From: Candidatus Poribacteria bacterium
GTDB taxonomy: Bacteria > Poribacteria > WGA-4E > WGA-3G
Length of the DNA stretch: 64,000 nt
NCBI GenBank assembly: GCA_963663765.2
Contig: CAXXUA010000005.1
Coordinates: forward strand, 1,376,001-1,440,000
Reading direction: 5' to 3'
The notes beneath the pieces were generated by a model that did no database searches, was not told the origin of the DNA, and saw nothing but the letters and a program-made list of their open reading frames with translations. Positions 33,953 through 45,007 of the stretch are shown here, in pieces. Both the position numbers and the translations under genes were made by a program. Positions within the stretch are counted from its first letter, which is position 1; every line of letters begins with the position of its first letter.

Positions 33953-35176
33953 ATGCGTTTAACACGTGTCCTAACCACTTTGTTTTTATCACTATTTCTT
34001 ATCGGTTTCTTTTTGCCATCATCTTCGGATGGTTTTATTGAACGTGAGTTCACAATCCGAGAGATCCTTGATGCCTGCACAAATATTGTTTTCGGTGAAG
34101 TGAAAACTGTCAATACCACACGGTTGCAAGCAATCATCAAGGTCAATGACGACGTAAAGGGCAAAAGTTATCTTAAAGAAATCAAAATGAACTTTGCCAC
34201 TGGACAATATCTCAAAAATTCCACTCCCCAAAAGATGGTCAGGTTACTAAAACCCGGTATGCCGATTATCGTCTTCTACCGTCAACAATATGGTATTGAT
34301 AGCATGTGTTTTATTGATAACACATGGTTCCAAATGCGTGGATATAAAGGTAGAAGCGGCAGTTCATGGTGGAGTTTTACTCACATTGACCCGATGATGA
34401 ATCGAACTTTTGAGGGTAAGACATTAGCATTTCAAAAAGTTGTTCGTGACATGTTAGACGGCAAGATGTGGGTGGGTGTTCCCAAAAATGCCGTTAAAAT
34501 GCTGGTGTTGACTGGAAATAGTACCTCACCCACCTGGGGACAAACCCATGTTCATACCAACTCCATGACCTACGAATACCAAGCGATTCGCGATGTTAAG
34601 AAGGTTGACAAGCGACCTATGGCTTATGAATCCACCAAATTGAGCACACTCCCAAACTTGAAAGATGCCGATATTTTATGGCTCGGATATGAAGAAATAT
34701 CAAGCTTCGGTCGACACCTACTTACAAAAGACACTGAGAAAAAAATAAAAGAATTCGTCAAAAACGGTGGTATTGTCATTGTTTCCGGTCAGGACAGTAC
34801 ACCCATCAAACCTTGTAGCGTTGGATGGTTAGATGGCAATTTGAAAGGCGTTGAAAGTCCACCTGAAAGGTATTTTATCGTTACGGACAAATCCACACAA
34901 CTCTTTACAAGACCCAACATCGTCCAATCAGGCAAAATCTTTACTGATGATGCGTGGGTAAATTGGAAAAAAGATGACAAGGTATTTGCCACTACCCAAG
35001 AAAGAAAGGAACTTGTAATCGGGGCAAGATCTTATGGAAAAGGACTTTATATCATTACCAGTCTCCGCAACGATAACCAATATACAGTTTCAATGAACAA
35101 ACCACTCTTGGAAAACATTATCAATTATGCTGTCAATCAGATAGATAAAATGAAAAAACAAGTCAACACCGACTAA
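33953..35176 (+). CDS. Exported hypothetical protein; C-terminal half resembles class I GATase-like fold
   Basis: SD GGAGG; signal peptide; IKEFVKNGGIVIV, YGKGLYII, LLENII motifs. Confidence 0.7.
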   Translation: MRLTRVLTTLFLSLFLIGFFLPSSSDGFIEREFTIREILDACTNIVFGEVKTVNTTRLQAIIKVNDDVKGKSYLKEIKMNFATGQYLKNSTPQKMVRLLKPGMPIIVFYRQQYGIDSMCFIDNTWFQMRGYKGRSGSSWWSFTHIDPMMNRTFEGKTLAFQKVVRDMLDGKMWVGVPKNAVKMLVLTGNSTSPTWGQTHVHTNSMTYEYQAIRDVKKVDKRPMAYESTKLSTLPNLKDADILWLGYEEISSFGRHLLTKDTEKKIKEFVKNGGIVIVSGQDSTPIKPCSVGWLDGNLKGVESPPERYFIVTDKSTQLFTRPNIVQSGKIFTDDAWVNWKKDDKVFATTQERKELVIGARSYGKGLYIITSLRNDNQYTVSMNKPLLENIINYAVNQIDKMKKQVNTD

Positions 35177-36354
35177 TGAAATTTTGCTATTACTAATGTA
35201 ACGTCATCATGCAGAATTTCTCCCCGCTGATATGTTTCAAGGTCAACCAAAATCGCATCCTTTATTTCAGTTGGTGTTAGATGTCTTTTTTCAGAGATAA
35301 GGTTTTTCAGTCTTTCATGTCCATATATCTCTTCCTTTGCATTGCAAGCTTCTGTGATACCATCCGAATAAAGCACAAGTAGGTCATCGGGTTCCCATGT
35401 CGTTTCAGAACTCTGGTAGTGTGTCACCGTTTCCCTATCCGGTAATGCAATACCAACAGGAGTAAATTGCGATTCCAATTCTATGAACCTTTTGCAATTT
35501 GCTCGGTAAAGTAACATCGCTGGGTGTCCCGCATTAGCGAATTCAAGTCGATTATCCTGATGAACAATCACATAACAACATGTCATATAGATAAAGGTTT
35601 GTGCATAATCCTCTGTAACACGACTGATAGCCTTCATCACTTCAGACACTGATGCGTCAAACCGAATTTGCGTTTGTATGCAGCTTTTTGTCATCGCCGC
35701 AACCATAGCAGAATGAAATCCGTGTCCCATCACATCCCCGATAAAGATCCCTACCTGTTTGTTAGGTAGATACAGATAGTCGTAGTAATCACCCCCAACA
35801 CTATTTGTCGGTTGACAAAACCCAGCAGAAGTTAAACAAGGATGGTTAATTTCTTTGTTTGGTAGTATTGATTGTTGCACCTCAGCAGCAAGCCGCATTG
35901 ACTCCTCTTGTGCGACCTCCTTTCGCATCGCACTCATCTGTATTTCAAGGTCATGCCGAATTTTATTATTTAGAACTCGAAACATACCTCTACCAATTTG
36001 GGGTTCCCGTGCCAATGCGTTAAAAAAGTCTTCCTGAGAAATACGCAGAAGGTCCGTCGGTGTGGCAGTTTTTATCGTCGCGCTTCTCAGTTTATTGTCA
36101 ATCAGTGCAACTTCCCCAAAACAATACCCTTTCTCCTTAAAGGACAAAACTTCCATGTCTGATTTGATAATGCTAATTTCACCATCAACAAGCAAGTAAA
36201 GCGAATCACCTTCATCTCCTTCTTCAAAAAGGATATGGTCTGCAGGATATGCCACCTCTTTCGCGATAGCACAAATTGATTTCAGATCCGCTATTGAGAG
36301 TTCCGCAAACAGTTCTGTGTTTTTTAAAAACTGTAATTTCTGTTCAACTAACAT
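35173..36354 (-). CDS. cNMP-binding domain + SpoIIE/PP2C phosphatase
   Basis: EGDEGDSLY, FGEVAL..RSAT; VGGDYYD, GDVMGHG, NAGHP, YSDGITE, DDVTL. Confidence 0.92.
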   Translation of the reverse strand: MLVEQKLQFLKNTELFAELSIADLKSICAIAKEVAYPADHILFEEGDEGDSLYLLVDGEISIIKSDMEVLSFKEKGYCFGEVALIDNKLRSATIKTATPTDLLRISQEDFFNALAREPQIGRGMFRVLNNKIRHDLEIQMSAMRKEVAQEESMRLAAEVQQSILPNKEINHPCLTSAGFCQPTNSVGGDYYDYLYLPNKQVGIFIGDVMGHGFHSAMVAAMTKSCIQTQIRFDASVSEVMKAISRVTEDYAQTFIYMTCCYVIVHQDNRLEFANAGHPAMLLYRANCKRFIELESQFTPVGIALPDRETVTHYQSSETTWEPDDLLVLYSDGITEACNAKEEIYGHERLKNLISEKRHLTPTEIKDAILVDLETYQRGEILHDDVTLVIAKFH

Positions 36355-36497
36355 CACCGCATGTGTCCTTTGGATTTCACTGTATCTGAAGTAGTTATGT
36401 CTCACTAACTGGGATGTGTTTTACAAGACATATTTATAATGCATCGTGGTATTATACTCATCTACTGAGGATTTGTCAATTCCCTTTTACGAAAAGG

Positions 36498-41919: not shown

Positions 41920-42783
41920 ATGAGAGACTACTACGAAATACTCGGTGTCAAACGAAACGCCTCAGCAGATGAGATCAAAAAAGCATACCGTAAATTAGCA
42001 GTGAAATATCATCCAGATAAGAACCCTGGCGACAAAGCTGCTGAGGAGAAATTCAAAGAAGCATCTAATGCCTATTCGGTGCTATCTGATCCAGATAAGC
42101 GGCGAGTCTATAATACGCGTGGTCATGCTGGTGTTCACGGGATGGGTTTTGAAGGGTATACCAATGTGGAGGACATCTTCACACACATCAACTATAACGA
42201 TCTTTTTGGACGCGCAGCTCACGGAGGTTTTGGGGGCGCGTTCAGCGATGTCTTCGGTCCTCAACACCGAACGACACACACATATCGTGGACGAGATCAA
42301 CACCTAAACCTAACTATATCCTTCGCTGATGCAGTAAACGGAACTCAGAAAGACGTAAGAATCAGAGGAAAAAACATCACATTAAAAATACCCCCCGGGA
42401 TCAAAGACGGCCAAACGCTTCGCCTACGTGGACACGGTGAATCTATGGGCGCAGGACCAGCAGGAAACCTTTTAGTCAAAATTTCTGTTCAACCGCATCC
42501 ATCCTTAACACGCGATGGACTGGACTTGGTTACAGATGCCAAAGTGCCTATGACAACGGCAGCGTTAGGTGGCATCGTTCAAGTGCAAACGCTAACAGGA
42601 AATGTAAAGATCAAAATACCAGCAGGGGCACAACCCGGACAGCAGTTACGCCTACGTGGACAAGGCATATTAGACACATCCGGCAGAAATGGCGACCTAC
42701 GAGTCCGAATTGACGTGGAAATTCCAAAGTCATTGTCACGCAAACAGAAAGACCTACTAAAACAGCTTGCGAAGACACTATGA
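41920..42783 (+). CDS. DnaJ-class chaperone without zinc finger (CbpA/class B-like)
   Basis: J domain with HPD; G/F region; C-terminal substrate-binding repeats; no CxxCxGxG. Confidence 0.92.
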
Positions 42784-43694
42784 CAAATGAAATTGCCAAT
42801 CCTGACGCAACATCACAATTGCCTGGACAATTTGACATTGTGACAAAGCATATTGTCCGCCAGAATCCTGATGAATGTATTAAATTTTGTCTTGGTACGC
42901 CAGATGCAGAAGCGATAGAAATACTTGAAACGGAGCAGCCGATTGTCAAATGGTTTCGAGCTGACAGTTTCATACACGCAAATGTTCACGGTGAAGAAGC
43001 CATTGTCCATCTGGAATTTCAGACACACGATAGCACAGAAATACCAATGCCGTATCGGATTGCAGGATATGCGGGGTTAGGGATACGGACGTATCAATTG
43101 CCAATATATTCACACGTAATTTATCTTCATCCTAATGCAGGACAGAACGATCCAGGAAAATACATCCAAGATTTATCAGGATATGAAGCCACAATCAAGT
43201 ATAAGGTCATCAGACTAAGTCAAATAGAAGGGCAAAACATTTTAGAAGCAAGACTGAAAGGACTCATTCCTTTCGCTCCATTGATGAAACCACCAGAGAA
43301 AATGGATTCCAAGACGTGGTTACGGCAATGTGTTGATGTCGCACAGACCATTCCAATGGACGAAGCGGACAAACCAGACTATCTTGCCTCTATGGCTATT
43401 TTGTCTGACATGATATTAAATTTTTTTGATATACGTAATATTTTTTCGGAGGAAACCATGCAAGAAACATCCTTTGCACAATATTTTACTGAAAAAGCCG
43501 AAAGAAAGGCTAACATTGAAAACATACTTAATGTGTTAGAATTTCGTTTTCAAACTGATGATGTGGAAACGTTGAAACCTATAATTGAAAACATTGAAGA
43601 ATTACAAAAGCTAAAGCAGTTGCATCAAGAGGCACTTCAAGTATCAAACCTTGATGGGTTCAAACGCATCTTAGCATCAAATGGAACTGGGTAA
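42780..43694 (+). CDS. Rpn/YhgA-like PD-(D/E)XK nuclease-family protein
   Basis: RADS...HLEFQT...MPYR..Y core, VIYL, Y.VIRL, LIPFAPL; internal GGAGG-ATG at 43458. Confidence 0.82.
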
Positions 43695-43697
43695 ACC

Positions 43698-43934
43698 ATG
43701 CAAGAAACATCTTTTGCGCAATATTTTACTGAGAAAGCTGAAAGAAAAAATAGCATTGAATTACTTCTTGATGTGTTAGAAGTGCGTTTTCAACACAGTG
43801 ATGTGCAATTATTGAAACCTACGCTTGAGAATATTGAAGAAAATCAACGTCTTAGAGAGTTGATGCGTCAGGCAGTTCAAGTGCCAAGTCTTAATGAGTT
43901 CAAACGCATCTTAGTATCAAATGGAACTGGGTAA
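43698..43934 (+). CDS. Stand-alone Rpn C-terminal module (RpnS-like), variant B
   Basis: 78-aa intact paralog of the last 78 aa of the upstream gene. Confidence 0.72.
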   Translation: MQETSFAQYFTEKAERKNSIELLLDVLEVRFQHSDVQLLKPTLENIEENQRLRELMRQAVQVPSLNEFKRILVSNGTG

Positions 43935-43938
43935 AACC

Positions 43939-44175
43939 ATGCAAGAAACATCTTTTGCACAGTATTTTACTGAGAAAGCTGAAAGAAAAAATACCATTGA
44001 ATTACTTATTGATGTATTAGAATTTCGTTTTCAAACTGACGATGTGGAAACGTTGAAACCTATAATTGAAAACATTGAAGAATTACAAAAGCTAAAGCAG
44101 TTGCATCAAGAGGCACTTCAAGTATCAAACCTTGATGGGTTCAAACGCATCTTAGCATCAAATGGAACTGGGTAA
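43939..44175 (+). CDS. Stand-alone Rpn C-terminal module, B/A chimera
   Basis: 78 aa; N-part like B, C-part identical to the nuclease tail. Confidence 0.72.
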   Translation: MQETSFAQYFTEKAERKNTIELLIDVLEFRFQTDDVETLKPIIENIEELQKLKQLHQEALQVSNLDGFKRILASNGTG

Positions 44176-44178
44176 ACC

Positions 44179-44412
44179 ATGCAAGAAACATCTTTTGCGC
44201 AATATTTTACTGAGAAAGCTGAAAGAAAAAATAGCATTGAATTACTTCTTGATGTGTTAGAAGTGCGTTTTCAACACAGTGATGTGCAATTATTGAAACC
44301 TACGCTTGAGAATATTGAAGAAAATCAACGTCTTAGAGAGTTGATGCGTCAGGCAGTTCAAGTGCCAAGTCTTGATGAGTTCAAACGCATCTTAACATCA
44401 TATAGGAATTGA
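44179..44412 (+). CDS. Stand-alone Rpn C-terminal module, variant B'
   Basis: 77 aa; nearly identical to 43698-43934. Confidence 0.72.
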   Translation: MQETSFAQYFTEKAERKNSIELLLDVLEVRFQHSDVQLLKPTLENIEENQRLRELMRQAVQVPSLDEFKRILTSYRN

Positions 44413-44517
44413 ACCTTACCAAGAAAGGTTTACTACAACAACTCACAATAACACTATGAAGACATTTTGCCGATGCTTCAATCGGTTTTGGTATAGATGG
44501 CATAAAAGGGAGAGGTA

Positions 44518-44673
44518 ATACCATTTTCATGTGATAATGTCTCATTATCAGCGGAAATCTGGTAGGAGCGGAAATCTGGTCGCGACCGTGAGGTCGCTCC
44601 TACCGAAGAGAGTAACCCCCTGCCAGTAAACAGTAGAATTCCTTAATGAGACAAGATTTATTTGAATTGGTAT
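44518..44673. mobile_element. MITE family C with GTAGGAGCG REP doublet
   Basis: ATACCA/TGGTAT ends flanked by TA on both sides; copy at 49149-49363. Confidence 0.78.
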
Positions 44674-44674
44674 T

Positions 44675-45007
44675 ATTCATGTTGTAGGTCCGATTTGGCA
44701 AGGAGGGAATAGAAGTGAACCTGAATCGTTAGCCGACTGCTATAAGAATAGTCTACACCTTGCAGCAGAAAATGGAATAAGGTCTATCGCTTTTCCTGCA
44801 ATTAGTACTGGCAACTTTAGTTATCCTATTGAACAAGCAACGTCTATTGCCCTGAATACCGTGAAAGAGTTTGTTGAACAAGCACATCAGAAAAACAAAA
44901 TGGTCCCAGAACGTATTCAGTTTGTTCTGTTTGATGAAGAATCTTATAACTGCTATGTCAAAGAACTTTCAAAACTTGGAATTGGTTTATCCTGTCTGAT
45001 TGGATAA
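44675..45007 (+). pseudogene. 5'-truncated macrodomain (YmdB-like O-acetyl-ADP-ribose deacetylase)
   Basis: Manual translation IHVVGPIWQGG...CYKNSL.LA.ENGIRSIAFPAISTG.F.YP; N-terminal half and start codon missing. Confidence 0.8.

Follow-up and report, generated by a model that had tools for sequence, protein, structure and literature searches.

We describe a locus in a 64,000-nucleotide (nt) stretch of DNA from a sponge symbiont, Candidatus Poribacteria (G000:C5:1376001-1440000, here called the window; coordinates are positions within it unless a contig is named) where a gene for a putative nuclease is followed by three further copies of its own 3' end. The gene encodes an N-terminal domain and a predicted helical tail, the latter headed by a candidate internal start. 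This fused tail (cassette T0, type A) is followed on the same strand by three free tail genes (cassettes T1 to T3), the whole lying behind a co-chaperone gene (Table 1).

Table 1. Features of the dnaJ-nuclease-tail locus, given as window positions
Feature	Position	Strand	Basis or remark
dnaJ/cbpA-like co-chaperone gene	41920..42783	+	Pfam DnaJ 102.6 bits, DnaJ_C 144.8 bits
RpnL-like open reading frame (ORF), 304 amino acids (aa): N-terminal nuclease domain and tail A	42780..43694	+	ORF list; AlphaFold 2 (AF2) model, mean predicted local distance difference test (pLDDT) 85.6
N-terminal domain, putative PD-(D/E)XK nuclease of the Rpn/YhgA kind	42780..43457	+	conserved residues, model, profile
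GGAGG resembling a Shine-Dalgarno site, then 5 nt and an in-frame ATG: candidate internal start of an RpnS-like protein	43448..43460	+	
Cassette T0: tail A, fused to the nuclease; 78 aa from the internal ATG	43458..43694	+	
Cassette T1: free tail, type B body with A-type 3' end, 78 aa	43698..43934	+	
Cassette T2: free chimeric tail, 78 aa; frame also open from ATG 43921	43939..44175	+	
Breakpoint interval of the T2 B/A chimera	44017..44022	+	cassette nt comparison
Cassette T3: free tail, type B', 77 aa, own 3' end	44179..44412	+	
Relic of the last 38 nt of dnaJ, at the far edge of the nuclease-tail block	44422..44459	+	74% identity to 42746-42783
Terminator-like hairpin with T-rich tail	44469..44496	+	the sole one on the + strand from dnaJ to the array end

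The basic layout had been proposed in an earlier note made from the sequence alone, and the letters and the ORF list bear it out. The gene contains an in-frame GGAGG-AAACC-ATG (GGAGG at 43448-43452, ATG at 43458), from which a 78-aa tail would be read, and three more intact modules of 77-78 aa follow. The ATG of T1, T2 and T3 stands 3, 4 and 3 nt after the preceding TAA, respectively, and T1 is thus in the frame of the nuclease, again as claimed; a repeat analysis found the same four copies with start-to-start distances of 240, 241 and 240 nt. The first 17 residues are common to all four cassettes. Comparison of the cassettes at the nucleotide level also upheld the proposed order, namely A, B, a B5'/A3' chimera and B'. 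T1 is identical to T3 over cassette nt 1-195, and T0 to T2 over nt 103-234. Within nt 1-84, T2 differs from T1 at 5 positions and from T0 at 16; its last B-like, non-A position is nt 78 and its first A-specific position nt 85, which places the breakpoint at nt 79-84. No single event yields the order A, B, B/A, B'; at least two unequal exchanges or conversions are required.

The two tail types have diverged unevenly along their length, with 25 of the 74 compared residues differing between A and B. Codons 1-17 carry five synonymous and no replacement changes (synonymous rate, dS, ~1.0), and this pattern indicates that the shared 5' box is kept by selection on the peptide and not by recent homogenisation. 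Over codons 18-74, a replacement rate (dN) of 0.35 and a dS of 0.42 give a dN/dS of 0.82, so that the remainder of the tail appears to have diverged nearly at the pace of silent sites.

Evidence for the internal start came from the wider family. GGAGG occupies positions -10 to -6 from the conserved Met in 40 of 41 distinct fused genes of the window family, 16 of them from this genome and the others from the loci of relatives, copies related closely enough for their independence to be overstated; the single gene without the motif is one with an internal stop. The site encodes varying residues (S/L/P/M/T, then E, then E/A/D/G). For the Glu, GAG is used in 40/40 cases against 25% GAG genome-wide, and the codon before it always ends in G, with five different codons in use (TCG, for example, makes up 7% of Ser codons). 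Because GAG and G-ending codons are kept against codon usage despite the varying residues, the data point to selection at the DNA level for a ribosome-binding site at the internal start. At the level of sequence the gene thus has the internal start heading the tail that is known from the RpnL/RpnS pairs of Escherichia coli, and the internal start probably yields the nuclease's own small antitoxin. Each free ATG lies 3-4 nt after the preceding TAA, from which we infer translation of the free cassettes by coupling, a mode that fits this spacing.

The relation of the long protein to Rpn nucleases emerged through intermediates. A profile built from 23 N-terminal domains of the family retrieved 2571 cluster representatives at E<=0.001, 684 at 1e-10 and 79 at 1e-30. 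Twenty distant full-length matches (E 8e-38 to 2e-21) were scanned in turn, and five pass the cut-off of the Rpn profile PF04754 (24.5-33.2 bits) while two pass that of DUF4351 (41.8 and 43.2 bits). This transitive link from the N-domain profile to proteins passing the PF04754 cut-off is decisive for our view that the long protein is, as judged by profiles, a divergent Rpn relative lying outside PF04754 as now modelled; the label Rpn-like denotes transitive and profile evidence, with no direct match to a hidden Markov model (HMM). The tails add to this, since an hhalign comparison of the window family with true PF04754 proteins of the same genome aligned them over 76 columns with 96.2% probability (E 2.7e-9).

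Conserved residues and the predicted core are consistent with a nuclease of the kind that E. coli Rpn proteins carry, a PD-(D/E)XK-type domain followed by a variable helical tail, both of which are predicted here. Across alignments of 21 and 23 sequences D62 and E79 never vary, and Q81 never or hardly ever does. The AF2 model has a mixed alpha/beta N-domain in which D62 stands just before strand 63-69 and E79 and Q81 lie inside the adjacent strand 72-81, so the predicted core has the PD-(D/E)XK pattern of an Asp followed by E-x-Q/K on the next strand. An hhalign of the N-domains with true PF04754 proteins, which is not significant (E 0.11), places D62/E79-x-Q81 on the ESD/EHQ of the latter, residues that we take to be catalytic in RpnA. 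In structure comparison with VIA-align the N-domain matched NucS (2vld_B, Z 6.4, 100 aligned residues, root-mean-square deviation 2.9), Can2 (Z 5.6) and R.BspD6I (Z 5.4), all below the caution line of Z 8. In the ESM Atlas it falls beside DUF2887 clusters (0.97) and Rpn clusters (0.96), and a JGI record names one family member 'predicted transposase YdaD'. Finally, four-residue repeats of the type (GIEQ)n, from 0 to ~18 in number, are found 10-20 residues past the Met in paralogs and orthologs. The family thus shares with RpnL/RpnS a variable repeat number in the first helix of the tail.

A number of results speak against this reading. Pfam, NCBIfam and PADLOC gave nothing for the long protein or the cassettes, Pfam having no PF04754 match even at E<=1, although the PADLOC blank is uninformative as a true PF04754 protein was missed too. 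Whole-genome scans with PF04754, PF14261 (DUF4351) and PF11103 did not reach the family of the window protein: PF04754 was found at 9 places, none of them at loci of this family, and of 18 PF14261 matches at E<=10 none passes the cut-off, the tails of the family appearing only at E>=1.1. The non-significant alignment of the N-domains on their own points the same way, as does the fact that the sole structural matches of the N-domain, PD-(D/E)XK nucleases though they are, have middling scores (Z <= 6.4). Foldseek with the full model returned nothing at E<=0.001, EcoT38I and EndoMS being among its best rows, and with the tail model it found nothing in the PDB at the same threshold, the 50 rows listed being free of any Rpn entry, RpnAS included. 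Sequence profiles run against the PDB gave chance-level rows only for the full-length alignment and for the tail alignment (leucine-rich-repeat proteins), and the alignment of true PF04754 Rpn proteins recovered no Rpn chain by sequence either. The earlier note had named the gene an Rpn nuclease and had proposed a search with Rpn profiles; the search itself failed, with neither PF04754 nor NCBIfam matching directly, and what stands is a divergent relative on transitive and profile evidence.

The same genome encodes a second family, of true PF04754 proteins, with at least six genes, (xEQG)n repeats and DUF4351 tails that stay below threshold (15.7-18.8 bits). The two families (for the true Rpn type see, e.g., the gene at C3:462848-463882) share homologous tails, and each has free tails of its own. 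Their N-domains are not detectably alike in direct comparison, and EHQS in the true Rpn proteins corresponds to E-x-Q-T in the window family. Free tails of the PF04754 type were seen at C15:455918-456599 (L024), C15:339748-339978 (L023) and C5:1265144-1265407 (L026), the first of these holding two in tandem with unequal numbers of LEQG-type repeats.

To place the locus in its genus, relatives were compared. The window family is present in 24/24 genus genomes and in 1/16 genomes of the order's other families (E<=1e-40). The block dnaJ-nuclease-tails-aminotransferase is syntenic in 10 relatives and carries from 0 to 4 free tails: none in G016, G001, G002 and G005, one in G021, G006, G013 and G014, two in G003, after two nucleases, and in G020 one after the first nuclease and three after the second. 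In the array of the second nuclease of G020 (L058, 7137-8108), the fused tail and the three free ones have 3, 1, 2 and 0 four-residue repeats.

These relatives provide comparative evidence for exchange of the fused tail. The N-domain of G016 is identical to that of the window at 211/226 positions, yet it is fused to a type B tail, and the type B sequence of T1 is the very tail fused in this ortholog. P0004 has an A-type tail fused and P0001 (92% identical) an A5'/B3' chimera. The nuclease domains of G003 and G020 are identical at 219/226 and 223/225 positions, whereas their fused tails differ in repeat number and in the type of the C-terminal half; the fused C-half of G003 is found in a free cassette of G020. 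More generally, two C-half types, ELQ.LKQLH.EALQV and LREL..(E/Q/K)AVQV, recur fused and free across species. As far as sequences tell, near-identical nuclease domains thus bear A-type, B-type or chimeric fused tails. The past exchange that the earlier note had read from the chimera therefore has backing, both in the window and in other genomes. Its idea of a swappable tail holds on an evolutionary scale, but no recombinase, inverted repeats or tail-swapped allele within a sample were seen.

We consider it likely that the locus is a divergent, Rpn-type gene-within-gene system extended by a tandem array of three free RpnS-like genes, and that recombination of the array gives the nuclease new tails. 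If the Rpn systems of E. coli are a guide, the long protein would act as a toxic DNA endonuclease, and the short protein made from the internal start would bind its helical tail and keep it inactive. The free cassettes, translated by coupling, would add further tail proteins. To judge from the comparison of genomes, the array would expand, contract and turn mosaic through unequal homologous recombination and gene conversion between cassettes, and an exchange of a free cassette with the fused tail, by recombination, would leave the nuclease with a new in-frame tail. Growth and mosaicism of the array, taken together with re-tailing by recombination, would let it serve two ends, as additional or variant genes for antitoxins and as a reservoir of tails with other specificities. 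A complex prediction lends weak support to binding: the full-length protein with T1 scored 0.35 against 0.00 for the best control, with at least 80% contact agreement between runs and a partner pLDDT of at least 78. This mark is reached by 116/157 solved complexes and 2/215 mismatched pairs, and scores up to 0.60 comprise just 18 of the 157 solved complexes plus both of the passing mismatches.

The functional side of this reading is weakened by several observations. All three free cassettes diverge from tail A at residues 18-26, in the second half of the first helix. Because this helix sets specificity in E. coli, the free cassettes may be non-cognate and unable to neutralise this nuclease, if the strict pairing rule of E. 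coli holds here. GGAGG is present in just 2 of the 17 free cassettes having the Met. One free cassette of G003 is without its start Met, and the neighbours of the locus in the window are housekeeping genes, not a defence island.

A bolder version, which we hold to be possible but doubtful, would see the array as a permanent stock of tails with alternative specificities on which a defence nuclease could draw, a system free of any recombinase, diversifying toxin and antitoxin jointly and comparable with silent-cassette antigenic variation. Under this proposal, two old tail types (the A-like and B-like C-halves) might persist across species in fused and free form, a suggestion we advance with as much reserve. 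Re-tailing could perhaps far outpace the divergence of the catalytic domain, though we would not lean on this. It is also conceivable, if somewhat improbable, that the free copies, all of them non-cognate in helix 1, are kept as reserve alleles or decoys and not as antitoxins.

Alternatively, the free cassettes could be neutral leftovers of unequal crossing-over where the gene end is prone to form repeats, untranslated or useless and lost as quickly as they form, with only the fused tail and the internal product of any consequence. The T1/T3 and T0/T2 pairs are so nearly identical that the duplications must be recent, and they are too alike for selection to be read on the window's own copies; the absence of GGAGG from 15/17 free cassettes with the Met, the lack of free tails in 4/10 syntenic relatives and the lost start in one of the others all go with loss and disuse. 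Set against this is the condition of the cassettes themselves, as all three in the window and all four free ones in G020 are intact, and the junction TAA-(A)ACC-ATG is retained in G000, G013 and G006. Between genomes, free tails have a median dN/dS of 0.21 (60 pairs, range 0.08-0.43, all <1), which equals the median for fused tails (0.21, 43 pairs), with the reservation that the pairs are non-independent and that gene conversion from fused tails could lower the ratio of the free copies. This median suggests that the free tails are under purifying selection. Free tails also occur at 4 other loci of the genome and beside true PF04754 genes. In E. coli, moreover, RpnESs is produced as protein (Zhong et al. 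2023, PMC10400941). We therefore regard the by-product explanation as unlikely.

A second proposal, put forward in the earlier note, is a poly-antitoxin array in which the B-type cassettes neutralise Rpn-like paralogs encoded elsewhere in the genome. The genome holds ~16 full-length and 2 N-truncated paralogs of the window protein; with the full-length ones and the true PF04754 genes present, cross-protection could in principle be useful. The tails, however, point back to the locus itself: in the 61-aa domain the identity to T0 is 61-62% for T1 and T3 and 90% for T2, and of the 26 such tails that the genome encodes no other is more than 51% identical to T1-T3. Each free cassette is therefore nearer to T0 than to the tail of any other paralog, as is the case for free RpnS genes (RpnSs). 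No paralog of this genome carries tail B, the check that the earlier note had suggested. In E. coli, RpnS acts on its own RpnL alone (PMC10400941, PMC10400984). This proposal is thus very improbable.

That the assembly over-expanded a locus of one or two cassettes to four can be practically dismissed, in spite of a 240-nt period, stretches of 130-195 nt identical between cassettes and the failure of any listed Logan contig to span the whole array, as every junction and the chimera breakpoint are matched exactly by contigs from two studies, the T1>T2 spacer has a distinct 4 nt, T2 has private changes, and arrays of 1 to 3 free tails per nuclease occur at the same site in six other genomes, some on a single contig. 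The exact matches are to run X1, possibly the source sample, for the junctions T0>T1 and T3>flank, to X2, from another study, for T2>T3, and to both for T1>T2 and the breakpoint. With such junction-spanning contigs in two studies and comparable arrays in other genomes, the array is not a pure assembly artefact, and the four cassettes are the minimum consistent path and not a measured copy number. In run X7 one contig (depth 2) links the T0 end to the T0 start (A>A), which is too weak to be used. No RNA run figured among the 17 runs listed as holding the sequence.

Cassettes of this kind have precedents. In Rhs and contact-dependent inhibition (CDI) systems, with their orphan toxin/immunity cassettes, and in silent pilin cassettes, downstream partial copies share a conserved 5' box with an expressed gene and can swap its variable end by homologous recombination. 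The window cassettes differ in being complete ORFs with their own start and, unlike Rhs/CDI cassettes, probably encode an inhibitor and not a silent toxin tip. Unlike silent-cassette systems, the window locus gave no evidence of frequent switching within a population, as far as Logan contigs can tell.

The nearest likeness is with E. coli. There, single RpnS genes (RpnSs, e.g. ypaA) lie downstream of the nuclease gene, as in rpnE-ypaA and rpnC-rpnCSs, and arose from the upstream tail through duplication (Zhong et al. 2023, PMC10400941); fusions of the N-domain to RpnSs and tandem rpn duplications are described in the same source. RpnS proteins have four-residue repeats past the Met, and their first helix sets specificity (PMC10400941). 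As in rpnE-ypaA, the window has a tail copy encoded just downstream and derived from the upstream tail. Unlike in E. coli, there are three free copies and not one, in two divergent types plus a chimera, each distinct in sequence from the fused tail. The N-domain has diverged beyond the reach of PF04754 and the tails beyond that of DUF4351, the four window cassettes are without four-residue repeats, unlike the paralogs with their (GIEQ)n and the true PF04754 proteins with their (xEQG)n, the gene is operon-like behind dnaJ, and the locus is known from sequence only. The solved RpnAS is a dimer of three-helix bundles with a long first helix; the window tail is modelled (pLDDT 90.1) with a long first helix, 26 residues in length, and three short helices.

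With regard to the surroundings, the ATG of the nuclease overlaps the TGA of dnaJ (ATGA, 42780-42783). The spacing from the dnaJ match to the nuclease match is an identical 44 nt in 8/8 loci of relatives that show dnaJ (L057, L058, L061-L066), and this constancy makes it seem that the nuclease is co-expressed with the co-chaperone gene across the genus. A promoter scan found 6 sites against 9.2 expected and so no evidence of an internal promoter. Neither a promoter-like nor a terminator-like site lies between the cassettes; the terminator-like hairpin after T3 is weak (4 sites against 2.7 expected in shuffles). The relic of the dnaJ end begins 10 nt 3' of T3 and ends in the same CTATGA as dnaJ itself; the same relic follows the last tail by ~30 nt in G006 and G005, and a fainter one is seen in G020. 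Its position beyond the last tail suggests that the nuclease-tail block once inserted at the dnaJ stop, duplicating the end of that gene.

Further downstream, a repeat of ~160 nt at 44516-44677 with a GC-rich palindromic core (~44561-44610) has ~200 full-length and >600 core blastn matches within the genome, and in the Logan contigs of four runs its word depth is 1e3 to 1e5. It resembles an element of the miniature inverted-repeat transposable element or repetitive extragenic palindromic kind. Directly after it, an ORF at 44666-45007 (+) covers just positions 58-118 of the 118 in the Macro domain profile (PF01661), its C-terminal half, and looks like a truncated gene. Upstream, the ORF at 35176-36405 (-) combines a cyclic-nucleotide-binding domain with a SpoIIE-type phosphatase domain. 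Its PADLOC matches to Pycsar/TIR effector models are confined to the cyclic-nucleotide-binding domain.

A survey of the literature on DUF4351, recombination-promoting nuclease (2023 on) and RpnS/RpnL/rpnSs/ypaA returned no multi-copy free RpnS arrays, with the proviso that the supporting information and Dataset S1 of Zhong et al., which it did not cover, may list some. Within that scope, four things are new: a tandem of three free tails that represent two old types and a chimera; re-tailing of the nuclease, for which the comparison of sequences gives direct evidence; a large Rpn-related family overlooked by current profiles; and a conserved position behind dnaJ amid housekeeping genes.

Rpn systems serve as the model for antitoxins encoded within their toxin gene. 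In Zhong et al. and the accompanying commentary, what drives the hypervariable tails and what purpose the free downstream copies serve are given as open questions (PMC10400941; PMC10400984). Current profiles miss a large Rpn-related family, to judge from the 2571 cluster representatives retrieved at E<=0.001. The congeners of the window organism form a natural series in which the same nuclease is accompanied by 0 to 4 free tails and two tail types stand in either position. The G020 array, with repeat numbers of 0, 1, 2 and 3, is likewise a natural series for the rule that repeat number sets the specificity of RpnS. With the series of congeners, dosage, the replacement of tails and pairing, whether cognate or not, can be put to a direct test in E. 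coli.

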